DNA of 64,000 bases from Escherichia phage OES_C-1. Positions 2,775 through 59,316 of the stretch are shown one piece after another (position 1 is the stretch's first letter; every line of letters begins with the position of its first letter). The notes beneath the pieces were generated by a model that worked only from the letters and a program-made list of their open reading frames with translations, was not told the DNA's origin and did not search any database. Location: the sequence record PQ553088; one strand, given 5' to 3'. Position numbers and translations under genes: made by a program.

Positions 2775-2808
2775 GTATAGTACCACAGAGGAACAGTCTT
2801 GTAAACAA
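2775..2808 (-). promoter_or_regulatory. T4-type early promoter (GTTTAC -35, 18-nt spacer, TACTAT -10)
   Basis: gtaaac at 2801-2806 and atagta at 2777-2782 on + strand; member of the conserved cassette family. Confidence 0.6.
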
Positions 2809-2990
2809 CTTTTTAAAAATATTCGTAATAAATGTGAATACCAATCACTACTGCCGAAACTTGCGCAACCCACCACGCACACGCAATAAGTACAGAATTC
2901 AAAATTTTCATAATAACCTCATCACAAAAGTAAATGTTAAACAAATTACTGGAATACTAATTAACCAAACAAAACACCACCATAATGAAC

Positions 2991-3254
2991 TCATAGTTCA
3001 ATCTCAATGATTTCAAGATTATTTTCTTTAATAGCTTTCTTTAAATCATCGTAAATAAGAACTTCCCAAGAATTGTTTAAATCACCATTCAACAAACGCT
3101 CTTGTTGCAATTTATCAGTAAGATATGGTTGGTCTGATTCATATTTAGACAATCCCAATGAAATAAATGATGTTGCATCGTCAATTTCAGAATATTGTAC
3201 ATGAACAAATTCACCTGTGATTTTATGTTTAACATAAAAGAATTTAAATTTCAT
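2991..3254 (-). CDS. hypothetical protein (87 aa)
   Basis: Track ORF; start immediately downstream of promoter cassette copy. Confidence 0.5.
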   Translation of the reverse strand: MKFKFFYVKHKITGEFVHVQYSEIDDATSFISLGLSKYESDQPYLTDKLQQERLLNGDLNNSWEVLIYDDLKKAIKENNLEIIEIEL

Positions 3255-3280
3255 TTTTGTTCCTCTGTAGTTGATAGTTG

Positions 3281-3313
3281 TATAGTACCACGGTCCTTGT
3301 AGTATGTAAACTA
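3281..3313 (-). promoter_or_regulatory. T4-type early promoter
   Basis: gtaaac 3306-3311, atagta 3283-3288, 17-nt spacer; cassette family. Confidence 0.6.
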
Positions 3314-3327
3314 GTTTATGAAATTTT

Positions 3328-3885
3328 TTAGATGGAAAGATACCATCCGTTGTAGTTGCTTTTTCGCACTACCTTACGAAGGTCTTCTCTATCACCAATG
3401 AACTTCGGAGTGTACTGGATGACACCTGGATGAATTTCTTTAGTGTTGAATATAATTATACAGTCAGCGACTTGATGATTTAGAATGGGCCCTAGATTTA
3501 TTCCAGAACCGTATGGATACTCTCCGCTGCATCCGGTTGTTACCGAAATCCAACGTGAGTCAGTTTGATGTGTTTTGACTTCTACACGAAGCCCGCAGTA
3601 TTTTGGATGCGCCAGTACATCCCACGCATATGTATACGGGTCATTAACATCCTCTTGGCCTTTGTTAACATACCCGCTTAGCCAATCTGCTACAAAAAAT
3701 TCTGCGTACACAGCGATACGACATCTTTCAATAACTTCTGCTTTATCCTGATTAGGATTTTGTTTTAAAGAGTATCTTGCTGTATCAGCAATTTTGACCT
3801 TCATTTCACTAGTCAAGTCATTGTTCGATAGGGTAAATGTCGGAATCTGAAATAGTCTCTGTAAACCTGGATTCGTTTTCTGCAT
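3328..3885 (-). CDS. denB: endonuclease IV (DenB)-like, 185 aa
   Basis: MQKTNPGLQRLFQIPTF...; length and position upstream of rIIB as T4 denB. Confidence 0.75.
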   Translation of the reverse strand: MQKTNPGLQRLFQIPTFTLSNNDLTSEMKVKIADTARYSLKQNPNQDKAEVIERCRIAVYAEFFVADWLSGYVNKGQEDVNDPYTYAWDVLAHPKYCGLRVEVKTHQTDSRWISVTTGCSGEYPYGSGINLGPILNHQVADCIIIFNTKEIHPGVIQYTPKFIGDREDLRKVVRKSNYNGWYLSI

Positions 3886-3952
3886 TTAGACTTTCCTTTT
3901 ATGTCTGAATCACTGGTATTCATATAATAAATCATAATTTCTCTTAAAACAA

Positions 3953-7593: not shown

Positions 7594-9408
7594 CTGGCTC
7601 ATCCATTCTTTACGAAGGTCAGCATTATCTCCCATGAGCATTTCAAAAAGCTCTTTCCAGTTCTCAGGAAGTTTAACAACATCATATACTGGATTTTGAA
7701 TCATCTCACGATATTCAGATTTTTCCAAAGAGCCAAGTCCTTTAATATAACGGATGCTATGTTTAGGTAGAGCATCTTTGGCGCTCTCATATTCAGCGAC
7801 TGTATAAAACCATTCTTGTTTTTTACCGACCTGTGCGATGATTACAGGAGTTTTGACAAAGCGAATTCGTCCTTGCTCAAACAGTTCTGGCCAATTACTA
7901 AAAAATCCAAGCAGAGAAGGATAAATGCTTCCTAGACCATCATGGTCAGCATCAGTCATAATAGCAATATTATGATAATTCAAGTTTTCAGCTTTTTCAC
8001 CGAGAACTAATCCAGTGATTGCGCAAATATCAAACAGTTCTTTGTTTTTAAGCATGTCAGCATATGACATGCCCCAACTGTTGAGAACTTTACCGCGCAA
8101 TGGATAACCACCGTGAAGTTCTTTATCACGAACATCAATAAGATATCCGATAGCCGAATCACCCTCAGTCAAGAAAAGAGTAGTGTCAGCATCTTTACCA
8201 CAAAGATTCGCTTTAATATGTTTATGAACCTTAGCTTTAGAGGCCTTTTTAGCTGCTTTAGTTTCAGCTGCTTTTTCTGCTGCCAATTTACGAGCCAAGG
8301 CAGCTTCAATAATTGGCATTAAAATTGCTTCATTATTTAAAATAGCACGTGAAATCTTTTTAGCATCAAGCTGAATATGACTACGAATTTCACCAAATGG
8401 AGAAGTCAAACGCTCTTTAGTTTGAGAATCAAATCGCATGTTTTTCATATCACGAACAAACATAACGATAGTCAAACATTCTTTAACACGTGCTTTAGTT
8501 ACATCAATTTTGAATTTACGTTTGATTTGTGGAATAAGGTCTTCACAAATATCATCCATAACACAGTCAATGTGATGGCCACCATTCTTAGTATGAATGT
8601 TATTGACGTACGTCAATTGACGAAAACCATCCGGTGAACGACCAACCGCAATAGAACAGTTTTCTTGTTCTTGAACGATGGCGTGTTCATCATATTGGCG
8701 TGCATATTTCTTAAAATTACCCTGAACCTTTTTACCATTAAAGGTAAATTGAATATCAGGATAAACTACTGCAAGTGTCTGGAGACGATCTAGCGTAATG
8801 TCAAGATAAACTTGAGATAGCTCATTGGTTTCAAATGACATAAAATCAGGAATGAAAGTAACACGAGTTCCTTTCCATTTTCCTGGAATAGTTTCCCATG
8901 ATTTATTTTCCATGCCATTTGAACAACGAACTACAATATTATTTTGACCATCACCAGTTTCACCGACAAACATCACAGAAAAAATGTTTGTCAAACTAGA
9001 ACCAACACCATTCATACCGCCAGTGACGCGTTCTTTATCATCACCAAAGTTACCACCTGCTTTTGGAATAGTCCATGCAGCAACAGGACCAGGAATTTCT
9101 TCACCAGTAGGTGTTTTAACCATCGCCTGTGGAATACCGCGACCGTTATCTTCAACTGTTACTTGATTGTTTTTAATAGTAACATTAATTTTATTTGCGA
9201 ATTTAAACTTAGTACGAATACCTTCATCTACTGAGTTATCGATAATTTCATCAATAAGCTTAACAAGACCAGGTACATACTGAACACTTTCCCATTTACC
9301 AAACAGAAAGCGCTCATGCATTTCATTAGCGGAAGAGCCAATGTACATGCCGCTACGCTTTTTGATATGTTCAATATCGCTCAGAATTTTAATTTCATTC
9401 TTAATCAT
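7591..9408 (-). CDS. 39: DNA topoisomerase II large subunit, single continuous gene (GyrB-like ATPase plus Toprim region that is separate gene 60 in T4)
   Basis: MIKNEIKILSDIEHIKKRSGMYIGSS... through ...GLGSLEKSEYREMIQ; ~605 aa uninterrupted. Confidence 0.9.
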   Translation of the reverse strand: MIKNEIKILSDIEHIKKRSGMYIGSSANEMHERFLFGKWESVQYVPGLVKLIDEIIDNSVDEGIRTKFKFANKINVTIKNNQVTVEDNGRGIPQAMVKTPTGEEIPGPVAAWTIPKAGGNFGDDKERVTGGMNGVGSSLTNIFSVMFVGETGDGQNNIVVRCSNGMENKSWETIPGKWKGTRVTFIPDFMSFETNELSQVYLDITLDRLQTLAVVYPDIQFTFNGKKVQGNFKKYARQYDEHAIVQEQENCSIAVGRSPDGFRQLTYVNNIHTKNGGHHIDCVMDDICEDLIPQIKRKFKIDVTKARVKECLTIVMFVRDMKNMRFDSQTKERLTSPFGEIRSHIQLDAKKISRAILNNEAILMPIIEAALARKLAAEKAAETKAAKKASKAKVHKHIKANLCGKDADTTLFLTEGDSAIGYLIDVRDKELHGGYPLRGKVLNSWGMSYADMLKNKELFDICAITGLVLGEKAENLNYHNIAIMTDADHDGLGSIYPSLLGFFSNWPELFEQGRIRFVKTPVIIAQVGKKQEWFYTVAEYESAKDALPKHSIRYIKGLGSLEKSEYREMIQNPVYDVVKLPENWKELFEMLMGDNADLRKEWMSQ

Positions 9409-11030: not shown

Positions 11031-11073
11031 ATCAGTAGTTGATATTGATATAGTACCATAATCAACTACTGAT
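11031..11073. repeat. perfect 13-bp inverted repeat (atcagtagttgat / atcaactactgat) with 17-nt spacer containing tatagtacc promoter core
   Basis: Read directly from sequence. Confidence 0.7.
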
Positions 11074-12210: not shown

Positions 12211-12750
12211 TTATCTCATTTCAATAAAATCTACGAGTTCAGCATGCGATTTGCGGAACATTACTTGGTGCCTGCCAATGATAACTTGATCATCTGGAAC
12301 TTCGTATACAGCGAGATAAAATCCTTTAGAAGATAATTCTTCGCGTTCTTCTCGTGTGAACCATCTCATCATATCATATTCGCTAGCGAAAGCAAAATGA
12401 TAAAGAGCTATAAACCATCCTGGAATATGATATTCTACTCCAACATAATCTTTCTTGAACTTAGTATTAATTACTATATTAGCGTTTTTAACTAATAGTT
12501 TATCTTCGTGTGGTAAAGGAATTCTTTTATTATCATCACTATGATGCATAAAATTAGGTCTATCATAACCTACGTGTAATAACCACTCTTCGCTCCATGA
12601 ATCTATTATACTCCTGTACGGCGTTATTTGAACACAAAGATTTCGACGTATTGTTATAGCATCTTCATAATTAAGAATACTAAAAGATGATTCAACACGA
12701 TAAATTTTCATTTTATTATCCTCAGTAGCTATGGTGTTATAATACCACAA
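12211..12750 (-). CDS. hypothetical protein (179 aa)
   Basis: Track ORF. Confidence 0.5.
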   Translation of the reverse strand: MWYYNTIATEDNKMKIYRVESSFSILNYEDAITIRRNLCVQITPYRSIIDSWSEEWLLHVGYDRPNFMHHSDDNKRIPLPHEDKLLVKNANIVINTKFKKDYVGVEYHIPGWFIALYHFAFASEYDMMRWFTREEREELSSKGFYLAVYEVPDDQVIIGRHQVMFRKSHAELVDFIEMR

Positions 12751-12770
12751 CTAACCGAGGAAGTAAACAA
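12737..12770 (-). promoter_or_regulatory. T4-type early promoter
   Basis: gtaaac 12763-12768, ataata 12739-12744, 18-nt spacer. Confidence 0.55.
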
Positions 12771-22766: not shown

Positions 22767-23791
22767 ATCTTAGCATATTTAGATAGCCGCATTTTAGCCA
22801 TCAGCCCTTGGGCAATATTATTTTTCATATATTCCATAATTTGTTCAGGGGTTGCACCTTCCTTTCTAATCATATCATTAACATCTTTTGATTTCCAGGG
22901 AGATTTATCCCAAAACATAACCCTTTCTCCTGCATCAACTAATTTAGTCATTCGTTTAATAGTATCAGGGTGACGAGGTTCATTATCTAAAACCCATACA
23001 CGTCTATCTTTAAATGGAACAATTTCTAGGTCTAATTGACCACCTGTAATAGCTATACCATTTTCAATAAAAAGTGAATCTATAGGTCCTTCTAGAACAT
23101 ATACATCACCATCTTTAACTCGTTCAACTCCATAGATTTTTGTTGCCTCAGGATAAGCTTTGATGGTGATATATTTTTGAGGAGCATCTTTCTTTAATGC
23201 ACGTCCTTGAAAAGACTCAGCTTTTCCGTTAGCATTATAAATTGGAATAACAAGACGAGGCTCAGGTGTTTCCTTTTTATATGTTCCTGGAGCTATACTA
23301 TTAACTAATTTAGGCCATTCAGTTGTAAACCAAAGATATTTCCATTTATCCTTTGGAATACAACGAGCTTTTACATATTTTATAATTGGATGGTCTTCCG
23401 CCAATTTATCTAATCTGATGCATGACGGAAGAGATTTAATTATTTTCTTCTCGGGTTGTTTAGGAAGTTCTTTAGGTTTTTCTACTGGACGACTTTTACC
23501 TTTTTCTTTTCTTATTTCAAAGATATACTCACGATATAAATCAGGTTCAAACTCCTTTAAATATATTCCGATTGGTGCATGATAGTTACAGTTATAACAA
23601 TGAATATTTCCTTCATTATTATCACCGTAATACCATCCACGGGCTTTATTTTGGTCGGTTTTTGAATCTCCACAAACAGGGCATCTAAACCGTAATTTAA
23701 AAGTTGAACTATTATTTACTTGTGTGAATTTAGGTAAATGAGCTAGCGCACGATATGCAAACTCATTATCAATCCAAGGTATTGATGACAT
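22763..23791 (-). CDS. 61: DNA primase gp61 (342 aa)
   Basis: Zinc ribbon CPVCGDS...CYNC plus Toprim region; MSSIPWIDNEFAYRALAHLPKF... Confidence 0.9.
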   Translation of the reverse strand: MSSIPWIDNEFAYRALAHLPKFTQVNNSSTFKLRFRCPVCGDSKTDQNKARGWYYGDNNEGNIHCYNCNYHAPIGIYLKEFEPDLYREYIFEIRKEKGKSRPVEKPKELPKQPEKKIIKSLPSCIRLDKLAEDHPIIKYVKARCIPKDKWKYLWFTTEWPKLVNSIAPGTYKKETPEPRLVIPIYNANGKAESFQGRALKKDAPQKYITIKAYPEATKIYGVERVKDGDVYVLEGPIDSLFIENGIAITGGQLDLEIVPFKDRRVWVLDNEPRHPDTIKRMTKLVDAGERVMFWDKSPWKSKDVNDMIRKEGATPEQIMEYMKNNIAQGLMAKMRLSKYAKI

Positions 23792-23793
23792 TT

Positions 23794-23958
23794 TTACTCT
23801 TCTTTTTCTTTAGATTCCTCTTTTTTCTTTTTAGGAATCTGTTCAGGACCTTTATTTACTACAGCGCCTGACGTTGTTCCAGTAGAGATATTTTCAGGAT
23901 TACCGCCTGAATCTCCAGCGACCATATCTTCTTTGATAAATTCTTTATATGTTTTCAT
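23794..23958 (-). CDS. small lysine-rich protein (~54 aa)
   Basis: Hand translation MKTYKEFIKEDMVAGDSGGNPEN...KKKKEESKEKEE. Confidence 0.3.
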   Translation of the reverse strand: MKTYKEFIKEDMVAGDSGGNPENISTGTTSGAVVNKGPEQIPKKKKEESKEKEE

Positions 23959-23959
23959 A

Positions 23960-24316
23960 TTAACCTCTATTCATAAAAGCATTAAAAATTTGGTCATCAA
24001 TTGATGGAATAGCAACCCTTTCTGCGTCATTTAGCAAATCATTAATTTCATCAGATAGCATAACACATGTACCTTTATTTCCTGTAATTGTTACTGCACA
24101 ATTACGAACATTTTCTTTATCGAATTTTAGGTTAATATTTTCGTAGTGAAAATCCTTTAATGCCGAATATATTTTTAAAATGAAATTGTCTTTTACTACA
24201 ATAAACCCAACCTCGCTATTAAAACGTGGTTCATGGAAACTGTAATAAACCTTTTCATCTATGAAATCGTATGAAATTTTTTCCATTTTTAAATATGAAA
24301 ATTCAGAACTATACAT
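23960..24316 (-). CDS. hypothetical protein (118 aa)
   Basis: Track ORF. Confidence 0.5.
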   Translation of the reverse strand: MYSSEFSYLKMEKISYDFIDEKVYYSFHEPRFNSEVGFIVVKDNFILKIYSALKDFHYENINLKFDKENVRNCAVTITGNKGTCVMLSDEINDLLNDAERVAIPSIDDQIFNAFMNRG

Positions 24317-24328
24317 ACTAACCTCTAA

Positions 24329-24622
24329 TTACTCACCTACCACTTCAGCGATGATATTTTTATTATTGAAGTTTTTATCACAATACAGAACGTAATTATA
24401 CTGCATTACACCACCAGACTTAAGCTGTTTTTGTACTTCAGCTTTCATTTCAGGACGATCACGCTCAACGATATTCATAATATCTGCTTCAATCTGAGTT
24501 TCAACCTCAGTTTGATCTGCAGTCATAGACCATTCGCACAAATCTTTATCATAACCTGCCATAGCAGGCTGAGCAGCACAAGAAGCTAAAGCAAAAATTG
24601 TAGCAAAAACAAATTTTTTCAT
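24329..24622 (-). CDS. sp: Spackle-like periplasmic protein (97 aa, signal peptide)
   Basis: MKKFVFATIFALASCAAQPAMA signal peptide; size and position between 61 and 41 as T4 sp. Confidence 0.65.
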   Translation of the reverse strand: MKKFVFATIFALASCAAQPAMAGYDKDLCEWSMTADQTEVETQIEADIMNIVERDRPEMKAEVQKQLKSGGVMQYNYVLYCDKNFNNKNIIAEVVGE

Positions 24623-24650
24623 GATAATCTCCTCAGTAGTTTATGTTTAT

Positions 24651-24680
24651 ATAGTATCTCAATTTCCAACAAAAGTAAAC
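24651..24680 (-). promoter_or_regulatory. T4-type early promoter
   Basis: gtaaac 24675-24680, atagta 24651-24656. Confidence 0.55.
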
Positions 24681-24682
24681 AG

Positions 24683-24985
24683 TTATTTTAAAACTTCTGC
24701 ATAATCACATGTTACAAACTGTTTCTCTAACTTGACGATTTTACGAAAGTATCTTTTGCATTGACGAATCTGTCGCTTCGTAGGGCGCACAGCAAACTTA
24801 ATAAATTCCACTCGACCAAATGGAGGACTTTCTTCTGCTGGAATATCTAACACCAATTCCCACGTATCCGCAATAAGTGCTTTGAATTGTGTATTTTTCC
24901 TGATGTTATACGGAGTAGGTTTAAATAAAACCGTATGCATATTACCCTCGCCAATCAGATTCAAAAACTTTTTTATCATTAACAA
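24683..24985 (-). CDS. hypothetical protein (100 aa)
   Basis: Track ORF. Confidence 0.5.
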   Translation of the reverse strand: MLMIKKFLNLIGEGNMHTVLFKPTPYNIRKNTQFKALIADTWELVLDIPAEESPPFGRVEFIKFAVRPTKRQIRQCKRYFRKIVKLEKQFVTCDYAEVLK

Positions 24986-25133
24986 ATGCTTTAACTAAAG
25001 CTTTATTAACTTCAGCAAGTTGTGAAGTGACCCATAGAATTTGATCTTTATCAGACACATCCATAGTGATTTCTTTGGTAAACATATTACCATTTTCAAA
25101 CCAGCCAATAAAAACAATCTTTGCTAATTCCAT
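24942..25133 (-). CDS. small protein in dmd position (63 aa); possible Dmd antitoxin homolog
   Basis: Immediately downstream of gene 41 as T4 dmd (61.5); identity not verified. Confidence 0.45.
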   Translation of the reverse strand: MELAKIVFIGWFENGNMFTKEITMDVSDKDQILWVTSQLAEVNKALVKAFVNDKKVFESDWRG

Positions 25134-25162
25134 AACAATCTCCCCATTTAACCAACAAGACT

Positions 25163-25192
25163 ACTATACCATAGTCTTGTCAGCTTGTAAAC
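25163..25192 (-). promoter_or_regulatory. T4-type early promoter
   Basis: gtaaac 25187-25192, actata 25163-25168. Confidence 0.55.
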
Positions 25193-26619
25193 TAAAATTT
25201 TAATTCATTTGCTAAAGCATCTAACTGAGCTCGAGTGGATTCGTTTCTTTGATAGCGGTTCTGTTCAGCCTGAATCTGCTGTGAACCTGCTACTTCGTTC
25301 ACTTCAGTTGGAGTAGAATCTTGTTCAATTTCTACCCATTTCTGATTTCCTTTTTGAACACCCATCAAAAACTTATTCCATTTATTCTTATCACCATATC
25401 GTGATTTGATTTGCTTAATGAGTTGCTGTTCAGCAGCTGCTAACTCTTCAGTTTCAATGACCGCAAGCATAAAATCGGCTGTTGCTGGAAGACCGGCAGA
25501 TTCTGCAATATCGCTCATGTTAACATCAGAAGAATCCCAAGCTTGTTTACCAACCTGTGCTGCAGTCCAAAGAACAGTTTCGGTTTCAACAGCCAGAGCA
25601 CGCAATTCCTCTGCGATAGCTTTAACAGTTGTGTAACTATTTTCTGAGTAAACTCTGATGCGGCAAGATTTACAAATACCTAGATAGTCGACAATAATGA
25701 TCGTTGGAACAAAATTCTTCTTGAGCTTCAATTCGTTCAAAAGAGAACGAAATGTATTAGCGTCTGCTCCACCAGTAGGATACTGTTTAACGATTAAACG
25801 GCCGAGAGTAGATTTCTCACGCCATTTTTCCATTTTTCCTTTATACTCAGCGTAAGAAATATGCCCGTCATCAATGTCATCAAGAGAAACATCGAGCATA
25901 TTAGCGTCAATACGTTTAGCACAGACTTCTTCTGCCATTTCCATGGAAATGTAAAGAACATTATGACCGAGCTGCAAATAATCTGCTGCCAATGAACACA
26001 GACCTAATGACTTACCGACGTTAACACCAGCCATTAAAACGTTCAGTGTTCCAGTCTCAGCTCCGCCTTTAGTAATTTTATTTAGAATTTTGAGTTTAAA
26101 TGGAACCTTACGAGCTTTATTCATATAAGATAGCCAACGTGCTTCGTAGTCATCCATCCAATCATGGCCAACATAGCTATCAAATGAAATTGATAATGCT
26201 TGGCGCATGATGTCAGGAATAGCACCAACATCCGGCATTTTCTTATTTCGTTTTTCCGGAGGAAGCTCAGCATTAGTTTGAATTTCAATTATTTTAGATG
26301 TGGCGTTAAACATCGCCCTTTGCTGAACATATTTTTCTGTTTCTTTTACTAACCAGCTGTGGTCTTCTGGAGAATCGGCTAGTTTAGAAATAAGTGTTTT
26401 TACACCAGAATATTCTGTTTCAGTAAATGAACTATTTTCTAATGCAACATTTAATGCATTAATAGATGGAACGCTATGGTACTCATTAACATGAGATTTA
26501 ATTAATTTGAATGTATTTTTAGCTGGACCACTTTCAAAATATTCTGAATCCATATATGGCCAAACTTTTGAAAAATAAGCTTGATCAAATATGAGATGAG
26601 AAAGAATAATTTCTACCAC
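25192..26619 (-). CDS. 41: replicative DNA helicase gp41 (DnaB-like), 475 aa
   Basis: Walker A GVNVGKS, RecA-like core; MVEIILSHLIFDQAYFSKVWPYMDSEYF... Confidence 0.9.
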   Translation of the reverse strand: MVEIILSHLIFDQAYFSKVWPYMDSEYFESGPAKNTFKLIKSHVNEYHSVPSINALNVALENSSFTETEYSGVKTLISKLADSPEDHSWLVKETEKYVQQRAMFNATSKIIEIQTNAELPPEKRNKKMPDVGAIPDIMRQALSISFDSYVGHDWMDDYEARWLSYMNKARKVPFKLKILNKITKGGAETGTLNVLMAGVNVGKSLGLCSLAADYLQLGHNVLYISMEMAEEVCAKRIDANMLDVSLDDIDDGHISYAEYKGKMEKWREKSTLGRLIVKQYPTGGADANTFRSLLNELKLKKNFVPTIIIVDYLGICKSCRIRVYSENSYTTVKAIAEELRALAVETETVLWTAAQVGKQAWDSSDVNMSDIAESAGLPATADFMLAVIETEELAAAEQQLIKQIKSRYGDKNKWNKFLMGVQKGNQKWVEIEQDSTPTEVNEVAGSQQIQAEQNRYQRNESTRAQLDALANELKF

Positions 26620-26991: not shown

Positions 26992-28147
26992 TTAACTTAT
27001 CTAGGTCAGTTTCTAAATCAGCTGCTGATTTACTTTTACTTTCTGGAGATTTAAATTTTTCAACCTTTGAGTTAATTAATTCATCAACTTCAGCTTCAAC
27101 AATTTCATTACTATCAATAGCACCTAATTGATAAGCACGTTTAATAGCATCTCGGAATGGTTGATGCTTAAATAAAGGACCCCAGAATGTAGTGCAATTG
27201 GTATCTTTTGCACGCCAAGATTTTTCTTCGCGAATCATCTCGCCAGTTTCTTCGTCAAGAAATTCACGAGCATACCAGCCATTTTTAGGTTTTACTACAA
27301 ATCCTAATTCAAGAGCCATATCTAACAATCCAGAATAAGGATCGATACCACCGTCAAATTTAACATCAATAAAGAATTTACTTTTTTCTTTGACGGTGCG
27401 AGATTTTTCTACATTTAGAACAAATTGATACCCCTGAAGATCAGAACCATCTTTAATCTGACGCTTACCGATAATGAATACAGTATCAGCCGAATACATT
27501 ACGCCTGTACCACCTGTCATCACGGTTTTACTAAACATTTCAATTGTTTCAATTGTATGGTTAACCGCAACGCATGGAATGTTTTTAATACTAAAATAAG
27601 GAGTAACAATACGGAATAATGACTTCAGTGATTTAGCACGAGTCATATCTGCCACAGATTTTTCATTCAAGGCATCTTCCGTTTCTTTCTTAGAAGCCAT
27701 ATTACCGATTGAGTCGATGAATACAATAACTTTTTCACCGCGCTCAATAGCTTCAAGCTGATTCACCATATCAATTTTCAGTTGTTCAACTGACTGAATT
27801 GGCGTATGAATTACTCGTTCCGGGTCAACTCCCATGGATCGCAAATAAGCTGGAGTAATACCAAATTCGCTATCATAGAATAAACAAACTGCGTCAGGAT
27901 ATTTGTTCAAATACGCCGCAACCATAGTCAAAGACATATTTGATTTAAAGTGTTTAGAAGGACCTGCGAAAATAGTTAAACCGGACTGCATTCCACCATC
28001 AATCGCACCGGAAATAGCGATATTAAGCATTGGAATTTTTGTACGGATTACATCCTTTTCATTAAAGAATTTAGATGTAGTCAGTTCAGCAGTCATTTTA
28101 GAAGTGGAAGCTTTAATCAAACGGGATTTTAAATCTGCAATAGACAT
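26966..28147 (-). CDS. uvsX: UvsX recombinase (RecA-like), 393 aa
   Basis: MSIADLKSRLIKASTSKMTAELTTSKFFNEKDVIRTKIPMLNIAISG... Confidence 0.9.
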   Translation of the reverse strand: MSIADLKSRLIKASTSKMTAELTTSKFFNEKDVIRTKIPMLNIAISGAIDGGMQSGLTIFAGPSKHFKSNMSLTMVAAYLNKYPDAVCLFYDSEFGITPAYLRSMGVDPERVIHTPIQSVEQLKIDMVNQLEAIERGEKVIVFIDSIGNMASKKETEDALNEKSVADMTRAKSLKSLFRIVTPYFSIKNIPCVAVNHTIETIEMFSKTVMTGGTGVMYSADTVFIIGKRQIKDGSDLQGYQFVLNVEKSRTVKEKSKFFIDVKFDGGIDPYSGLLDMALELGFVVKPKNGWYAREFLDEETGEMIREEKSWRAKDTNCTTFWGPLFKHQPFRDAIKRAYQLGAIDSNEIVEAEVDELINSKVEKFKSPESKSKSAADLETDLDKLSDMEEFNE

Positions 28148-28224
28148 TCATTTTTTCCATAGGCATCATTATATTTTCCTCACCGGTTAAAGATAGGGTA
28201 ATTATAACACAATAAATTTAGGCA

Positions 28225-29067
28225 TTAATCAACTGCTATTGGATGAATAGCATTAAACTTATGAAACGCTTCTGATTTTTCTTTGCGCGAAACACACATG
28301 CGAAGAACCTTTAATGGCTCGTCTTCTTCACCCAACGATTTTCGTTTTTCAATATTAGAAGTTTTCCAACGAGCTTGCTCTGGAAATTCTCTATTGATTT
28401 GCTCAAGCGCTCTATTATGTTTAGAATTACTACGAATTGAACTACACCCGCCAGGAGCTTGTGATTTTCCAGATACAACCAAATATTTGAACAAGGCCAA
28501 ATGCGGATAACCTTGATTAATTAAATTGAGAAATGCATACATATCTTCGCATAAATCAATTTTTCCATACCCAATTTGTTCTGTCGTAAGTTTTCCAAGG
28601 TCATACCAGGTATTCGTGAATCCATATGAATTTTCACGATAATTACCCCAAGATGAAGTAATTTTAAAAATTGGTAGACGAGCATGACCGTGATAATACC
28701 CGCAATCCATTGCATCCTCAACGTATTGAATTAATTCATAGAATTGCTCACGAGTCAATTGATTGACTTTATCTACACGCCGTTTATCGTCTCTCTTTCG
28801 TATTGAACTCATACGAATAGTAGTATCATCATCGATCATCCAAATTCGTTGACCTGCATACATATCAGTAATTGCTTTACGAGTTCCAGCAATTCCATTG
28901 ACATCATCAGGAATAGTTATAATTTTAGCTCTAGACCCGTAAGCGTCATGATAAGCTTTTTCTTCATGTTCACGTACTACAATATGTGGTTCATAATCAG
29001 ATGGAAACATATCAAGGGCAGAAACTGCCCTTACGCGTTGATAGCTTGGAATTACGAATTGAATCAT
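28225..29067 (-). CDS. GT-A fold glycosyltransferase (DxD motif), 280 aa; candidate DNA hydroxymethylcytosine sugar transferase in the beta-gt slot
   Basis: N-terminal FVIPSYQR and WMIDDDTTI motifs; located between uvsX and 42. Confidence 0.55.
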   Translation of the reverse strand: MIQFVIPSYQRVRAVSALDMFPSDYEPHIVVREHEEKAYHDAYGSRAKIITIPDDVNGIAGTRKAITDMYAGQRIWMIDDDTTIRMSSIRKRDDKRRVDKVNQLTREQFYELIQYVEDAMDCGYYHGHARLPIFKITSSWGNYRENSYGFTNTWYDLGKLTTEQIGYGKIDLCEDMYAFLNLINQGYPHLALFKYLVVSGKSQAPGGCSSIRSNSKHNRALEQINREFPEQARWKTSNIEKRKSLGEEDEPLKVLRMCVSRKEKSEAFHKFNAIHPIAVD

Positions 29068-29705
29068 TTAAGTGCCTTACATTTGTCAAAATGGTATCTT
29101 GTCATATTTGGCCCACGTCCTTTTAGTCCGCAATGCGGACATATTTTTTCTATCAAATTATGAGGTTTTCCTTTACGATTTTTAGACATCGTTTCTTTAA
29201 TTATTTTAGCTTTTTCTGCGCCAAAAATTTCTTCATAAGTTTTACCAGAATTTTCCTTTGCTCGATTTATAATTCCATATGCCTGTTCATTTTTACCATA
29301 CATTGGATTACCTTCGCCTTTCATTCTTTTAGAATGATCAGGACGCTTGATTCCACGAAAGGCATTTCCACATTTATATCTTTCTTCTGGAGATAGTTTC
29401 TTACCGTACATTCCATTTAATTTACCTGGAAAACTTCCTCCCCACGCTTCATTCTTTAAATTATATGAATCCGGGCAATTGGCAGCATCTAAACAAGTTA
29501 AAATAATTTCTTCAACTTGTCTAAACATCGGTCCTTCATATAATATTTCTTTATTAAAGGATTTTATTCCATATTTCTTTTTAGCATGTTGCCAAACTAC
29601 ACCCGAACCATCATAATTCGGGTTGTGACCATCGTGACTTCCTATATACCACTTTTTAGTTTTAGGATGTTTATACTTATAAACATGTGGCACATTTACT
29701 TCCAT
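29064..29705 (-). CDS. free-standing GIY-YIG homing endonuclease (Seg-like), 213 aa
   Basis: HVYKYKHP...KKWYIGS GIY-YIG core; repeated G-x-x-H-S/NPMYGK NUMOD-like motifs; overlaps both neighbours. Confidence 0.65.
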   Translation of the reverse strand: MEVNVPHVYKYKHPKTKKWYIGSHDGHNPNYDGSGVVWQHAKKKYGIKSFNKEILYEGPMFRQVEEIILTCLDAANCPDSYNLKNEAWGGSFPGKLNGMYGKKLSPEERYKCGNAFRGIKRPDHSKRMKGEGNPMYGKNEQAYGIINRAKENSGKTYEEIFGAEKAKIIKETMSKNRKGKPHNLIEKICPHCGLKGRGPNMTRYHFDKCKALK

Positions 29706-31239: not shown

Positions 31240-31488
31240 TCAAATGCAAGTAGTAATTACTCCAGTAGTGCTTATGCAGGTATTACCCATTTGCACACCT
31301 AAAGATCCATTTGTATTCACATGAAGATTATCATCAATTTTAACTGATATTTTACCATTAGTGTGAATAACAGTGCTAGATTCAATCACAGGTTGAGTAT
31401 CATTTTCAACACTAACAAATGGAACTGCTGCTAATGCAACTAAACAAACTGCTAAGCATCCCATAACAATTTTCATTTTATTCTCCAA
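31240..31488 (-). CDS. putative secreted protein (82 aa, signal peptide)
   Basis: MENKMKIVMGCLAVCLVALAAVPFVSV...; downstream of promoter cassette. Confidence 0.5.
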   Translation of the reverse strand: MENKMKIVMGCLAVCLVALAAVPFVSVENDTQPVIESSTVIHTNGKISVKIDDNLHVNTNGSLGVQMGNTCISTTGVITTCI

Positions 31489-31510
31489 ATCCGTATTAGT
31501 TGATAGTTGT

Positions 31511-31540
31511 ATAGTACCATGGAAGAACAGTCTTGTAAAC
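31511..31540 (-). promoter_or_regulatory. T4-type early promoter (cassette family)
   Basis: gtaaac 31535-31540, atagta 31511-31516. Confidence 0.6.
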
Positions 31541-31627
31541 AGTTTTGTGAAAATTTTTTAGGGAATTCTAAAGGTCCAGAATCATCTGTTTTTCATAAGT
31601 ATAGATTTATATTACTTGTATGAAAAA

Positions 31628-53312: not shown

Positions 53313-54314
53313 TTACTTAATTAACTGTAAAGCTTGTTCAAGACGATCCAGGCGATTAACAGATTCTTCCCAAATCCTTTTAGCCTGCTCATATTCTTTC
53401 TGTGCTTTATTAGAAATTTCTAGAACTTCTTTATAAGCTTTTTCTAGTGCAATAACTTCTGGACGAATTTCTACCGGTTCAAGTGAATCATCAAGACATT
53501 CCATTAGTTCCTCAAGGGTAGTTTCTTCTTTAGGAGTATTCACAATTTCATCACATTTTTGTTGGTAAATTTCTTTATCAGTCGGTGAGTACGCGCACTT
53601 TACTTCACGGAGACTAACTACAATTTTATATCCTTCCCAACCGCACATATTCTTAAAAGGATAAGTATGAATATTTTCTACCGTTTCCATACAAAGTAAT
53701 GCAGTCTCTAATTGACGAGTTATATCACTAGCAATTGAGAAAAATTTATTAATGTTCTTTTGATTAGCTTCTGGTGTAAAAAATCCATAATTCACAAAAA
53801 TAGCTGCTTTATTTTTATCAAGTTCATATTCTTTTATGATAATCATGTCAGAAGCCCAAGGATGAATTTGACGATAATCACCATAGCATAATTTAGAAGC
53901 TGATTTTAGAATTTGCTTTTTGAAAAGTCTGAAATTACTAATCCAACGACGAGTAAAAATATTCTCAGGGTCTTCTTTATTATTAAGATGATAAGAATTA
54001 ACATCACCGAACCAATTATATCCTACTACATCTTTGGTTCGTTTAATTTCTTTCCCAAAATTACCAAGAATATCCTGATTAACTAAATATGAAAGAAGAC
54101 GAGAACCTTTAAAGGTTTCCTTAATATCACCTTTATCTTCGCGACTAGAAATTTTATGAACTTCATGAATAAATTTGCTGGAAGAAACAATGCTTACATC
54201 AATATTATTGAGCCATTGATTGATAATGGAAATAACATTATTCTGACTAGACATAGGTTTAACTTTATCATCAATAACGCTATTAAATGATTTGATATAT
54301 TCGTTACGAGTCAT
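53313..54314 (-). CDS. paralog family member 2 (~333 aa from internal ATG), coiled-coil C-terminus
   Basis: MTRNEYIKSF... with GAGGAG SD; own early promoter upstream. Confidence 0.55.
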   Translation of the reverse strand: MTRNEYIKSFNSVIDDKVKPMSSQNNVISIINQWLNNIDVSIVSSSKFIHEVHKISSREDKGDIKETFKGSRLLSYLVNQDILGNFGKEIKRTKDVVGYNWFGDVNSYHLNNKEDPENIFTRRWISNFRLFKKQILKSASKLCYGDYRQIHPWASDMIIIKEYELDKNKAAIFVNYGFFTPEANQKNINKFFSIASDITRQLETALLCMETVENIHTYPFKNMCGWEGYKIVVSLREVKCAYSPTDKEIYQQKCDEIVNTPKEETTLEELMECLDDSLEPVEIRPEVIALEKAYKEVLEISNKAQKEYEQAKRIWEESVNRLDRLEQALQLIK

Positions 54315-54342: not shown

Positions 54343-54372
54343 ATTATACCACATCCTTGTGGTAAAGTAAAC
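54343..54372 (-). promoter_or_regulatory. T4-type early promoter (30-nt identical to 7562-7591 copy)
   Basis: gtaaac 54367-54372, attata 54343-54348. Confidence 0.6.
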
Positions 54373-55397
54373 TAGTTCAGTGCATTTAGTGCATTGTTCA
54401 GTTTAGAACGTTGCTTCGTGAGATTTTTGACTTTTTCTTGAGCTTTTTCTAGCATCTTTTCAGCTTCTAGCACTTCATTAGTTGCTTTAACGAGTTCATC
54501 ATCTACTGCTTTAAGAGACTTCTCAATCGCATCTGCATGCCATTTTTCAACAGGTTTAAGACTCGGATTTTCAATAGGAAGAAAATTCACTTTATTGAAT
54601 TTCCATGCATCTTTATTACCTGAACTATACATCCAAAATTTAGGATCGTTTGATGAGTAATTGGATAAATTTAAGTTATCTTGCACTTCCTGCTTTTTCT
54701 CTTGTGTGACTTCGTCCTTTCTCAAAAAATCGTATTTAAATGAAACGATCATATCAAGTTCATATGTTGTTGTATGTTCCCAATTTCGCTCAAAATGAGG
54801 TAAAATCTTAGACTGAACAGCAGCAACAACATCCATATACTTAAATGCTTCTGTCAGCTGTGATTTAAGACATTCACAAATTGAAAGAGAATTTTTAGTA
54901 TTAGGCTTAAAGCTAATTCGTGCAGTTCTATTATTTTCTTTTAACGGTCTTACTTCCATCTGAAGAGTATAACCATCAAATTTCAGGTTCTTTAAGTTAA
55001 TATCAGAGCCTTTTAATCGACTAGCAGTAGACAAAATTTGCTTTAATTGTTTACGGAATAGAGCAATAAATCTCCATTCAATACGATAATGATTTGGATT
55101 GAAAAATCCAGATGATAAATCGACCTTACTTTGACCAACGCCTTGAACAAATAGAGGATTTTTATAATCAATAGTTTTACAGAAATCGGTGAGCTGCTCA
55201 CGAGCCGTCATTTGTGTAATATACCCTGCTTTACTAAAATTACACACCCATTCACTACTGCTATTCTTATACTTAAAGTGATGAATAGCATGATTAACTT
55301 TATCAGGGTCTAAATTATTTTCACACAAAAATGTCATAACATCACGAGTATAGCTGGCTCTACGAACTATATCTTCAATTTGAGAACGAGTTTTCAT
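54372..55397 (-). CDS. paralog family member 3 (341 aa), coiled-coil C-terminus
   Basis: MKTRSQIEDIV...; ...KVKNLTKQRSKLNNALNALN. Confidence 0.55.
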   Translation of the reverse strand: MKTRSQIEDIVRRASYTRDVMTFLCENNLDPDKVNHAIHHFKYKNSSSEWVCNFSKAGYITQMTAREQLTDFCKTIDYKNPLFVQGVGQSKVDLSSGFFNPNHYRIEWRFIALFRKQLKQILSTASRLKGSDINLKNLKFDGYTLQMEVRPLKENNRTARISFKPNTKNSLSICECLKSQLTEAFKYMDVVAAVQSKILPHFERNWEHTTTYELDMIVSFKYDFLRKDEVTQEKKQEVQDNLNLSNYSSNDPKFWMYSSGNKDAWKFNKVNFLPIENPSLKPVEKWHADAIEKSLKAVDDELVKATNEVLEAEKMLEKAQEKVKNLTKQRSKLNNALNALN

Positions 55398-56763: not shown

Positions 56764-57291
56764 TTATGCGAGTACCGTCTTTAACCGTTCTTCAAACTTC
56801 CGAAGAGTATTTTGGCGTTCAGCTCTTTGCTTTTTGTAAGTTTCAATACGCTCTGAAATGAGAGTGTATCGTTCATTTACTGATTCTTTCATAAAATCAG
56901 GAATTTCACGAGAAGCTTTAATCTCGTCAAATTTATCAATAACAGCTTGCTCTTCAGCAATTAAGTTATCATACATTAAAATATCTTTCTTGATGAACTC
57001 AATATCTTCTTGAGTTACACGAGACATTTTAGATGCTTTATCCTTTTTGTACTGTTCGTTAGTATCACGAGACCAGTGTAATGTACGATTTTTATTCGTA
57101 TTCTTGTAAATTTCTACAATACCGATCTCATCAATAATAACGATCCAATTCCAACGGGATTTGTAAATTTGTCCTCCATCAACAGTGATTTCACCTCCGA
57201 TTGAGATGTCGTTAAAGAACTTGCTTTGTGCTTCAGATTTAAATTTACCATCGTTGTAATTTACCAAGTTGAAAATATCTTTAGCGTTCAT
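56764..57291 (-). CDS. hypothetical protein (175 aa)
   Basis: Track ORF directly downstream of promoter/leader cassette. Confidence 0.5.
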   Translation of the reverse strand: MNAKDIFNLVNYNDGKFKSEAQSKFFNDISIGGEITVDGGQIYKSRWNWIVIIDEIGIVEIYKNTNKNRTLHWSRDTNEQYKKDKASKMSRVTQEDIEFIKKDILMYDNLIAEEQAVIDKFDEIKASREIPDFMKESVNERYTLISERIETYKKQRAERQNTLRKFEERLKTVLA

Positions 57292-57319
57292 TTTCTGTTC
57301 CTCCGTAGTTGATAGTTGT

Positions 57320-57349
57320 ATAGTACCACAGAGGAACAGTCTTGTAAAC
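57320..57349 (-). promoter_or_regulatory. T4-type early promoter (cassette near-identical to 2749-2808)
   Basis: gtaaac 57344-57349, atagta 57320-57325. Confidence 0.6.
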
Positions 57350-57351
57350 CA

Positions 57352-57756: not shown

Positions 57757-58725
57757 TTATTTCAGAAGAGTAACCTCAGCGATTTCTTGCCAACCGTTTT
57801 TGTCGGTCATAATAAAGTCAGCAAGATAAAGAGCAGTACGCAGTGAAACATTGCGTAAACGATTAACATTGACTTTCATCCATGATAATGCTTTATAAGT
57901 TTCTTCATCAGAAAGACCGCGCTTTTGCATCATGTCAGTTGAAAGAATAACATCTTCAACCCTGACCATAATTTCTTCATTAGTGTGAACACCCAAATCC
58001 AAATAAACCGAGCGGGACACTAATGCTTGTAAATGTGGAGCAAGTTTAGTACCACGGTCTAATTCGCGGTCAATGTCAACGTTTGTGATAAAAACAATCG
58101 TTCCTTTAAATTCAAACTCACGGTCAATGCCTTTTTCTTCTAAGTAAGAAGATGCAGTGCTCCAGCAGACTTTACGGGTCTCTCCAGTGTCCAGAGCAGC
58201 TTTTAGAAGATTAAGAATGTCCATATCAGAGAAAACATCCACATCATCAATCAAAAGGACAGAGTTCTCTTCACGATTATTCCAAAGCTGTTCATAAAGA
58301 CCAATACCAGAGATTTTACCATTAATGCTTTTATATTCAATGTATCCATTATCATTTGCTTTATTTAAAGCTTTATCTAAAGAATACGTTTTACCAATAC
58401 CTGCTGCGCCAGAGATAATCAATGAACGAATATTTCCATTAATAATACCATTCGTCATCATTCCCATAACATTAAATCTTTTATTAATGCGGGTTTTCAT
58501 ATCTTCATATGATTCTTTAACTTCTTCAACTTTTACACCATCATATGAAATATCTGATTTGTAAACCCAAACACCGCGACGTTTACCGTCAATTTCAACA
58601 AAAACTTTACCATCTCCTTGTGCATCTACCGGAGCATTATCTGGGAACCATTCGCCTAAGAGCTCAAAAGTTCCAGAGATTTCTTTACCGAAGTAGATAC
58701 CCTTATTGATAGTTACAGTTTTCAT
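57757..58725 (-). CDS. P-loop NTPase (Walker A GAAGIGKT, Walker B LLIDDVD), ~322 aa
   Basis: Start at internal ATG with GGAGAA SD. Confidence 0.55.
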   Translation of the reverse strand: MKTVTINKGIYFGKEISGTFELLGEWFPDNAPVDAQGDGKVFVEIDGKRRGVWVYKSDISYDGVKVEEVKESYEDMKTRINKRFNVMGMMTNGIINGNIRSLIISGAAGIGKTYSLDKALNKANDNGYIEYKSINGKISGIGLYEQLWNNREENSVLLIDDVDVFSDMDILNLLKAALDTGETRKVCWSTASSYLEEKGIDREFEFKGTIVFITNVDIDRELDRGTKLAPHLQALVSRSVYLDLGVHTNEEIMVRVEDVILSTDMMQKRGLSDEETYKALSWMKVNVNRLRNVSLRTALYLADFIMTDKNGWQEIAEVTLLK

Positions 58726-58761
58726 TTTATTCTCCAATTTCACATTTGTTTTGATAGGGTA

Positions 58762-58791
58762 ATAGTATCACACTACTACCCTACTGTAAAC
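58762..58791 (-). promoter_or_regulatory. T4-type early promoter
   Basis: gtaaac 58786-58791, atagta 58762-58767. Confidence 0.55.
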
Positions 58792-58794
58792 AAT

Positions 58795-59058
58795 TTATTT
58801 TAATGTTCGCCAAATTTTTACTGCTTCGCGACGAGATACTTCTACAGCTCCAAGTTCTACGGCTTTTTGGCGGCGGCGCGCGTGTAAGTCATAATGTTTA
58901 ATGCGTTTATCTTGAAACCAAGAGCGTTTCATTCCTATTGCTTCTGCCATTTCATGAAGCTCTTCAATATCTCCATCAGTGAACATATGACAATTTTTAG
59001 TTGGATGACCGCGAAGTTTCCATCCATGATTCATTAAAACATCTACGTAAACTGTCAT
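58795..59058 (-). CDS. hypothetical protein (87 aa; MTVYVDVL...ELHEMAEAIGMKRSWFQ...HYDL)
   Basis: Track ORF. Confidence 0.45.
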   Translation of the reverse strand: MTVYVDVLMNHGWKLRGHPTKNCHMFTDGDIEELHEMAEAIGMKRSWFQDKRIKHYDLHARRRQKAVELGAVEVSRREAVKIWRTLK

Positions 59059-59204
59059 TAATTCTGCTCCAAATATGTTTCTATAATTTTCTGAGCGAGA
59101 TAAACTGCATTATCTTCAGTTGCATCTTCTAAGAAATTTTCAAAACAAGCTGAAATCTCTTCTGTGTCAATCAACTTTTTTACTTCAATTAACGTAGTTT
59201 TCAT
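59058..59204 (-). CDS. small acidic protein (~48 aa)
   Basis: Start at internal ATG (MKTTLIEVKK...) downstream of cassette promoter. Confidence 0.4.
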   Translation of the reverse strand: MKTTLIEVKKLIDTEEISACFENFLEDATEDNAVYLAQKIIETYLEQN

Positions 59205-59239
59205 TTTATTCCCCCAAATCCACATCAGTTGATAGTTGT

Positions 59240-59269
59240 ATAGTACCATAAAGCTTTATGCTTGTAAAC
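59240..59269 (-). promoter_or_regulatory. T4-type early promoter (cassette family)
   Basis: gtaaac 59264-59269, atagta 59240-59245. Confidence 0.6.
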
Positions 59270-59296
59270 AACTTTGTGACGTCATTTAAACAAAAA

Positions 59297-59314
59297 GGGA
59301 GCCCGAAGGCTCCC
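59297..59314 (-). terminator. UUCG-tetraloop hairpin downstream of the nucleotidyltransferase gene
   Basis: gggagcccgaaggctccc. Confidence 0.55.
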
Positions 59315-59316
59315 TA

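Follow-up and report, generated by a model that had tools for sequence, protein, structure and literature searches.

In phage T4 the genes e, soc and 49 have a promoter that lies inside a hairpin sequestering the ribosome binding site (RBS). An arrangement of this kind, with a late promoter within the RBS-sequestering hairpin, has been described for T4 I-TevI, I-TevII, I-TevIII and segB and for Aeh1 mobE (Edgell 2010). T4 early promoters (Pe) have been described as consisting of UP, -35, TGn and -10 elements with additional conserved regions (Hinton 2010), and the "promoter-early stem-loop" elements (PeSLs) of PST and T4 have the promoter consensus TTTACW-N17-TAYWAT (Comeau 2014, PMC4122927). 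The PeSL stem-loop lies just upstream of the promoter in PST and T4 and is a G-run/C-run stem in RB49 and phi1, and both have been proposed to be terminators or attenuators (PMC2839356, PMC4122927); PeSL crossovers were mapped within the stem-loops, and recombination between copies gives excised mini-circles (Arbiol 2010, PMC2839356). Here we describe a five-copy repeat in a 64,000 nt stretch of Escherichia phage OES_C-1 (sequence record PQ553088; hereafter "the window"), a Tequatrovirus, the stretch being the early region of a T-even phage. It seems quite likely that the five copies are early-promoter cassettes which serve as homology for recombination, and that in the type found ahead of nrdC.8 and the ndd.4 homologue the spacer between -35 and -10 encodes an anti-leader arm that masks the Shine-Dalgarno sequence (SD) on read-through RNA. 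The grounds for this are the repeat itself, its promoter anatomy, its homology with the upstream regions of T4 early genes, the indel junctions, the computed fold, and the conservation and covariation of that fold.

The repeat is present at the five loci at which an earlier, sequence-only reading of this DNA had placed it. Its 18 nt core, GGTACTATACAACTATCA, occurs exactly at bp 2767-2784, 3272-3289, 31501-31518, 57310-57327 and 59230-59247, always on the minus strand, and two relatives with three mismatches lie at 11040 and 62793. These seven matches compare with 0.07 expected in the 64 kb window (seven were reached in 0 of 100 shuffles), and GTTTAC-N17-19-TACTAT occurs eight times where 0.01 is expected, which rules out a chance repeat; conserved coding sequence is also ruled out, since every copy is intergenic, between a stop codon and an ATG, ahead of unrelated genes. 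All five copies have GTTTAC-N18-TACTAT with TGG preceding the -10, then an SD and an ATG, and their alignment gives the order GTTTAC, an 18 nt spacer with terminal TGG, TACTAT, ACAACTATCA(A/G)CT, an SD-bearing leader and ATG, with a start region, ACAACTATCAAC, that is conserved among the copies. The 18 nt spacing reported earlier is correct for the distance from GTTTAC to the TACTAT hexamer, but GGTAC begins after 16 nt. Similarly, the leader that had been ascribed to all copies (...CTAC(G/A)GAGGAAC) is present in the three whose genes start at 2748, 3254 and 57291, but the other two (31476 and 59204) have another, GGATTTGG(A/G)G(A)AATAAAATG. One of the gene starts given earlier, 31488, is the first in-frame TTG of a mechanically called open reading frame (ORF), and the ATG at 31476 is more plausible. 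The description of the genes behind the cassettes as encoding small secreted or membrane proteins fits the 37 aa ndd.4 product and the 78 aa MKIVMGCLAVCLVALAA... protein, but not NrdC.8 (175 aa), the 87 aa ORF or the acidic 48 aa ORF. An AT-rich UP-like element, AAAAAATTT(T)CA(C/T)AAAC, stands upstream of the copies with -35 at 3311 and 31540, and the copy at 59269 has the related upstream sequence GTCACAAAGTT but lacks an A/T run; in the copies at 2806 and 57349, which adjoin the stop codon of the upstream gene, the UP-like element is only partial. A search of Rfam across the whole window gave 0 matches at the gathering threshold.

The five repeats are T4-type sigma-70 early promoters with a short leader, and they are members of that class with no difference in kind. 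The same cassettes are found in T4 ahead of ndd.4 (a variant), ndd.6, imm.1, nrdC.8, nrdC.10 and motA, with more diverged versions upstream of ipII, rI.-1 and motB, and the window cassettes occupy the T4-orthologous positions before ndd.4, ndd.6, imm.1, nrdC.8 and nrdC.10. Like T4 Pe promoters they have GTTTAC, an 18 nt spacer ending in TG(G), a TAnnAT -10, an AT-rich upstream element, extra conserved start positions and early genes behind them, and in a pattern scan they match the published PeSL consensus (TTTACA-N17-TACTAT with TG); they differ in that three of them precede genes which the window phage has and T4 does not. T4 nrdC.8, imm.1, nrdC.9 and nrdC.10 are early by RNA and by protein, and ndd.4 is early by RNA (Wolfram-Schauerte 2022 supplement). 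The transcription start sites at the window cassettes are predicted positions.

Two of the copies, 2749-2808 and 57292-57351, had been singled out as nearly identical, and in the alignment only two of 60 positions differ between them. The nrdC.8 cassette (57289-57349, minus strand, as are all the window features described below; T4 counterpart at 53943) has its -35, GTTTAC, at 57349-57344, the spacer at 57343-57326, the -10, TACTAT, at 57325-57320 after TGG, a predicted +1 at ~57313, the SD, GGAGG, at 57304-57300 and the ATG at 57291-57289. The cassette of the ndd.4 homologue, which encodes a 37 aa membrane peptide, lies at 2746-2806, with -35 at 2806-2801, -10 at 2782-2777, SD at 2761-2757 and ATG at 2748-2746. 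The complementarity between leader and spacer that had been noticed in these two copies is present and is longer than was thought, pairing CUGUUCCUCUGUGGU with (A/G)CUACGGAGGAACAG over 15 bp including G-U pairs. RNA folding of the read-through transcript gives, as had been predicted, a hairpin that buries GGAGG, with energies of -23.5 kcal/mol for ndd.4 and -25.4 kcal/mol for nrdC.8 (z -4.73 and -5.92, respectively; 0 of 200 shuffles equally stable). The nrdC.8 hairpin (57295-57339) has a 5′ arm at 57339-57325, made of spacer and the first -10 base, a loop at 57324-57310 that holds the remaining -10 bases and the start site, and a 3′ arm at 57309-57295 over the SD; in ndd.4 folding places the arms at 2796-2782 and 2766-2752, and in both the 15 nt loop is the -10 and start region. 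RNA initiated at the cassette itself, folded from after the -10, is unstructured (0 kcal/mol); it cannot form the hairpin, since the bases of the 5′ arm, upstream of the -10 and in it, are missing from any RNA that starts past the -10. No intrinsic terminator was flagged by the scan in the stretch that separates the nrdC.8 cassette from the upstream promoter at 58791, and read-through RNA is therefore to be expected there. The nrdC.9 stop codon lies 12 nt before the 5′ arm of the nrdC.8 hairpin, and by our own estimate a ribosome terminating at nrdC.9 should leave the stem closed; on general grounds the 15 bp stem is unlikely to be an RNase III site.

From these folds we infer that masking of translation would operate in vivo in the following way. 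The cassettes would be fired by host RNA polymerase in the first minutes of infection. A transcript from an upstream promoter would hold both arms and fold the 15 bp hairpin, whose 3′ arm would bury GGAGG, and one from the cassette's own promoter would lack the 5′ arm and have its SD open, so that ndd.4 and nrdC.8 would be translated essentially only from their own early-promoter transcripts; on the long RNAs the hairpin would shield the GGAG from the ribosome and the RegB nuclease alike. The nearest precedent is the I-TevI type, in which, as is predicted here from sequence, an RNA initiated upstream hides the SD and an internal promoter gives a shorter RNA without the 5′ arm. The late promoters of the I-TevI type delay expression, whereas the window type uses a sigma-70 early promoter whose own spacer is the 5′ arm, and its expression would be confined to the earliest transcripts.

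Relatives keep the stem. All 13 distinct Tequatrovirus variants of the ndd.4 and nrdC.8 cassettes, from T4, IMG/VR and metagenomes, retain it with energies of -19 to -25.5 kcal/mol, a thin sample of variation within the genus since IMG/VR holds few Tequatrovirus contigs and the metagenome scan yielded only 10 loci. The stem changes among them are C/U opposite G or the loss of two outer pairs (the T4 ndd.4 variant retains its stem via G-U changes), and the loop varies freely (ACAAC or TACCC, TACTAT or TATTAT). In Dhakavirus the spacer of the nrdC.8 promoter, ATCTCCAGTAG, is of unrelated sequence and pairs with the leader of that promoter, CTACTGGAGGT, and thus the nrdC.8 GGAGG is covered by stems of independent sequence in two genera; in Mosigvirus the nrdC.8 spacer pairs instead with the bases immediately past the -10, and the predicted partner of the SD is the end of nrdC.9. 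A scan for the core of the Mosigvirus/Dhakavirus cassettes, TATAGACCTATCAAC, gave 31 distinct cassettes. One sub-family of these, which includes T4 ipII, has the spacer [AT]TCTCC-NN-TAG opposite the leader CTA-N'N'-GGAGA, and the dinucleotide variants AT/AT, AG/CT, TG/CA and TC/GA of the stem are all compensated and stand in different gene contexts. In one alignment (A2) 91% of cells are paired and three pairs are changed on both sides; its covariation score is 0.183, whereas shuffles give 0.072 (none of 500 reaches 0.183) and slid registers no more than 0.063.

Pairing between spacer and downstream region is systematic in T4-type early promoters and goes beyond the two hairpin copies. For 34 early-promoter-like sites listed in T4 we calculated the duplex energy of each spacer with its own downstream region, taken as the stretch between the -10 and the ATG; these energies average -10.7 kcal/mol, compared with -7.0 +/- 0.43 kcal/mol for permuted pairings (z -8.6; 0 of 20000 permutations), and 11 of the 34 rank first of 34 for pairing with their own leader. 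With paralogues removed z is -8.1, and 10 of 29 promoters lie at -14 kcal/mol or lower where 0.75 would be expected. The same measure gives z -4.0 for the window's own 17 promoters and -5.9 for the Mosigvirus/Dhakavirus cassette family. Within the window the motB.2 early promoter (12709-12768, matching T4 position 8218) ranks 1 of 17, its spacer TTCCTCGGTTAGTTGTGG pairing with its own SD-containing leader ACCATAGCTACTGAGGAT at -23.1 kcal/mol, so the device is not limited to the five-copy repeat. Partition-function folds pair 11 of the 34 T4 SDs with the -35/spacer region at a probability above 0.5, and on average the SD is paired with a probability of 0.66 in read-through RNA, as against 0.32 in RNA that starts at the promoter; in read-through RNA this probability is 1.00 for the T4 counterparts of the ndd.4 and nrdC.8 hairpins. 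Anti-SD 4-mers are found in eight of the 34 T4 spacers, with 2.3 expected (p = 0.002).

These data bear on the view that the complementarity has no function and is a by-product of templated (quasi-palindrome) mutation and gene conversion in a highly recombinogenic genome, the two window copies being one duplication. Their identity at 58 of 60 positions would suit such an origin, as would the demonstrable exchange of cassette parts by recombination and the persistence of broken combinations in some phages. The signal is nevertheless genome-wide and promoter-specific (z -8 in T4, -5.9 in another cassette family), four stem variants are compensated in different gene contexts, and the Tequatrovirus stem is conserved while its loop is variable; moreover, this view gives no reason for templated mutation to target promoter spacers, and we regard it as very improbable.

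Where the 3′ arm falls differs among the promoters. In about 14 of the 22 clear T4 cases it lies directly after the -10, as in ipIII (65799, 14 bp) and ipI (73939, 10 bp), and in about nine of the 22, among them nrdC.8, ndd.4, ipII, regB, motB.2 and 30.9, it lies over the SD. The majority that end short of the SD speak for a hairpin that acts on transcription or RNA stability, either by attenuating or pausing incoming polymerase and so insulating transcription units or as a 3′ stabiliser of the upstream cistron after endonucleolytic cleavage, with burial of the SD incidental. An RB49 PeSL stem-loop, which cuts expression of a downstream lacZ about as much as rrnB T1 does, and the stem-loops listed between -35 and -10 or overlapping the -10 (both Arbiol 2010, PMC2839356) point the same way. 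However, the nrdC.8 and ndd.4 stems have no U-run (they are followed by AAAAUGAA), which rules them out as canonical intrinsic terminators, anti-SD words are enriched in the spacers at the p value given above, and the independent stems of two genera both cover the nrdC.8 GGAGG. For the hairpin in general we consider an action on transcription or stability unlikely; a role as attenuator or stabiliser is favoured where the stem stops immediately past the -10.

Several points weigh against masking of the SD as the meaning of these stems. The hairpin, which had been presented together with the five-copy repeat, is not a trait of that repeat but of one cassette type; only two of the five copies have it, and these are nearly identical and so amount to one evolutionary event within the window, while the other three have no significant hairpin (z 0.0 to +0.9 relative to shuffles). 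In the 22 clear T4 cases the SD is not over-represented by position as a target of the 3′ arm, and SD masking may be a single consequence of a broader property, a hairpin around the promoter. A strand test that compares G-U with A-C mismatches, an excess of G-U being a sign of sense-strand RNA, gives 14 versus 7, which is not significant under symmetric scoring. Recombinant cassettes with mismatched spacer and leader exist and are evidently tolerated (nrdC.8 of L042 and the MKT-gene cassettes of L047, L094 and L161), so pairing is not obligatory. Both the start site and the fold in vivo are predicted, our literature searches having given no T4 5′-end mapping for these sites, and the searches found no earlier account of promoter-bracketing inverted repeats in a literature that did not extend to the older T4 work (Liebig and Rueger 1989; Wilkens and Rueger 1994; Miller et al. 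2003), which limits any claim to priority.

RegB offers another reading of the leader and hairpin, in which early leaders are RegB/S1 targets for quick inactivation and the hairpin mainly shields polycistronic RNAs. The consensus of a strong RegB site is GG*AGRAYARAA, and secondary structure protects from cleavage (Uzan and Miller 2010). The second leader type, GGAGAATAAAATG, is a perfect match, and in the 64 kb window GGAGRAYARAA occurs perfectly only at 58735, 31486 and 11016 on the minus strand, each an early leader directly before its ATG; two of these are the leaders of the 58791 promoter and of the 31476 copy (GGAGAATAAAA, 31486-31476). GGAG or GAGG is present in all leaders but that of the 59204 copy (59217-59206), which reads GGGGGAATAAAA, with GGGGG where the homologous leader has GGAG, and has lost GGAG. 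In contrast, the hairpin-bearing leader, GGAGGAACAGAAAA, fits the consensus only with a 1 nt insertion. The early promoter of T4 regB itself (62797, beyond the T4-equivalent range of the window) has a 15-position pairing of spacer and leader, TTTTCCTCTTGACTG with CAGTTAAGAGGAGAA, made of 13 Watson-Crick and two G-U pairs over the SD. RegB is known to cleave at this SD, and with such pairing read-through regB RNA would be both untranslatable and RegB-resistant. RegB as the principal object of leader and hairpin is compatible with masking of the SD, and as such we find it rather doubtful.

A role at the level of DNA would have the inverted repeat around the -10 extrude as a cruciform or hairpin and modulate firing, for example in early-promoter shut-off, or act as a hot spot of recombination or template switching. 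The arms differ between promoters and their position is constant, which suggests that structure and not sequence is read; reviews describe early-promoter shut-off as lacking a known mechanism (Hinton 2010; Uzan and Miller 2010), and PeSL crossovers lie within stem-loops, as noted above. On the other hand, several stems need G-U pairs, and on the complementary strand each of these is an A-C mismatch (three in T4 ndd.4, two in regB, two in nrdC.8), and loops of 15-23 nt are unfavourable for cruciform extrusion, so a DNA-level role appears quite improbable.

The repeat itself belongs to known classes, the T4 Pe promoters and the PeSLs. What appears new is that the spacers of early promoters are systematically complementary to the region downstream, in some cases to the SD; spacer-SD pairing is not described in the PeSL papers (PMC2839356, PMC4122927) or in the Hinton 2010 and Uzan and Miller 2010 reviews, and our literature searches gave no account of it. 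Tentatively, and leaning slightly against it in so broad a form, we suggest a design rule of T-even early promoters, in which the sequence-free spacer between -35 and -10 would encode the 5′ arm of a hairpin and the 3′ arm would lie after the -10 or on the SD. Read-through RNAs would thus carry a promoter-specific stem that is absent from the promoter's own transcript, and about one-third of the promoters (including those of regB, ipII, motB.2, 30.9, nrdC.8 and ndd.4) would couple translation and RegB access to the origin of the RNA, giving a short immediate-early pulse. If the pairing is functional, the promoter spacers of T-even phages hold regulatory information for RNA from other promoters, and both the translation of a cistron and its exposure to RegB are coupled to transcript origin. 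This would help to explain how early units that are densely packed in one direction, with a promoter every 1-2 kb, keep their expression from adding up, and why some early proteins are restricted to the first minutes of infection; a spacer-encoded anti-leader arm also bears on how insulated synthetic operons might be designed.

The cassettes are in addition a clean example of promoters as portable homology for the gain and loss of accessory genes. Three of the five window copies head modules without a T4 counterpart, and each of these indels is bounded by repeats in the cassette or leader. At the nrdC.11/nrdC.10 locus the window has a cassette (59202-59315, with -35 at 59269-59264, -10 at 59245-59240 and ATG at 59204-59202), the 48 aa ORF and a DUF4031 ORF (together 59204-58795), a second early promoter and then nrdC.10. 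This second promoter (58723-58791, with -35 at 58791-58786, -10 at 58767-58762 and ATG at 58725) closes the inserted module and drives nrdC.10; an inverted repeat, AGTAGGGTA/TACCCTAT, surrounds its -10, and its leader, TTGGAGAATAAAATGAAAACT, is a direct repeat that it has in common with the 59204 copy. TTGG(A/G)G(A)AATAAAATGAAAACT is found at both ends of the module, and the sequence suggests that the T4 nrdC.11/nrdC.10 arrangement arose by crossing over between the two end repeats. At the gene 43/imm.1 locus an extra ORF of 78 aa that encodes a signal peptide (31476-31240) is bounded by ATGAAAAT; its cassette (31474-31560) consists of an upstream AT-rich element, -35 at 31540-31535, -10 at 31516-31511 and ATG at 31476-31474. 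The third module is the 87 aa ORF, intact in the window at 3254-2991, whose cassette (3252-3311; -35 at 3311-3306, -10 at 3287-3282, ATG at 3254-3252; no SD hairpin) has an upstream AT-rich part, AAAAAATTTCATAAAC, that reaches ~3331. Upstream of T4 ndd.6 (T4 167086-166997, compared with window 3311-2991) there is an eight-codon remnant, MKIAEIEL, in which an imm.1-type cassette and its first four codons are joined to the last codons of the 87 aa ORF. The modules are present in 153, 316 and 37 phage records, as compared with ~499 for the nrdC.8 locus.

Of the ORFs behind the cassettes, which had been proposed for comparison among related phages, those in the three modules do prove to be variably present among relatives, and spacer types and leader types have been recombined between loci and phages; for example, in IMG/VR relatives the homologues of the 87 aa ORF have the same spacer and another leader. 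We infer that 40-90 bp of near-identity at many loci would provide portable homology for the T4 recombination system, and that crossovers within the core that the copies share, or within leader and first codons, would insert, delete or re-head small accessory genes, as in the PeSL model. The match to PeSLs that the sequence-only reading proposed thus holds in part. As in PeSLs (PMC2839356, PMC4122927), promoter, SD and ATG are repeated in variable regions, small ORFs are inserted, deleted or replaced between close relatives, and crossovers lie between -10 and SD, but the published stem-loop is not an SD-covering hairpin, whereas the window stem spans spacer to leader, encloses the -10 and covers the SD. 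The five copies are also unlike one another in this respect. Those at 2806 and 57349 have the spacer-leader stem, that at 59269 has an upstream terminator (59315-59296, the only one flagged by the terminator scan) and a palindromic spacer, that at 31540 has a terminator ~80 nt upstream, and that at 3311 has no significant stem-loop; an upstream terminator therefore accompanies only two of the five, and at most two copies have a stem-loop in the position published for T4 and PST, just upstream of the promoter.

Several other features of the cassettes and related promoters may be mentioned. The 59269 promoter spacer (59263-59246) contains a perfect 14 nt palindrome, CATAAAGCTTTATG, that is also found in the T4 promoters at 55384 and 146875. 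The minus-strand promoters with -35 at 54372 (nrdC.5) and 7591 have a hairpin wholly within the spacer, CCACA-AGGA-TGTGG, in what is the commonest stem-loop position reported for RB49 PeSLs. Orthologues (L040:12606, L041:12338 and L042:12607) keep the AGGA loop with an altered stem, AACCA/TGGTT in a Mosigvirus-like contig and ATCCA/TGGAT in Dhakavirus-like contigs, so that, judged by these sequences, this spacer-internal stem-loop looks as if it covaries. In two copies from relatives, L015:2125 and L027:9037 (IMG/VR contig 2974787500), the -35 half is replaced by an intrinsic-terminator hairpin that adjoins the remaining spacer/-10 half; these resemble the "degraded PeSLs" of Comeau 2014. The module of the 48 aa and DUF4031 ORFs (58795-59204) matches Enterobacter, Proteus, Aeromonas and Klebsiella phage records at 80-95% identity, which suggests that it has moved between genera.

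In a local BLAST comparison with T4 (NC_000866) the window is colinear with T4 164009-168903 and then 1-59948, with all genes of the colinear region on the minus strand and only a handful of indels breaking the colinearity. Over its segment 56000-60000 identity is 100% with Escherichia phages OES_C-3 and OES_C-2, and hundreds of Tequatrovirus genomes match that segment at 95-97%. At window 28135-29704 the sequence cannot be aligned to T4 23555-25487 (segA/beta-glucosyltransferase), and gene content there, for example of DNA-modification genes, may differ from that of T4. At 7926-7991 the window has 65 bp where T4 2793-3911 (~1.1 kb) has the gene 60 bypass segment, 60.1 and mobA, and the window phage probably has an unsplit topoisomerase gene 39/60 with no translational bypass.

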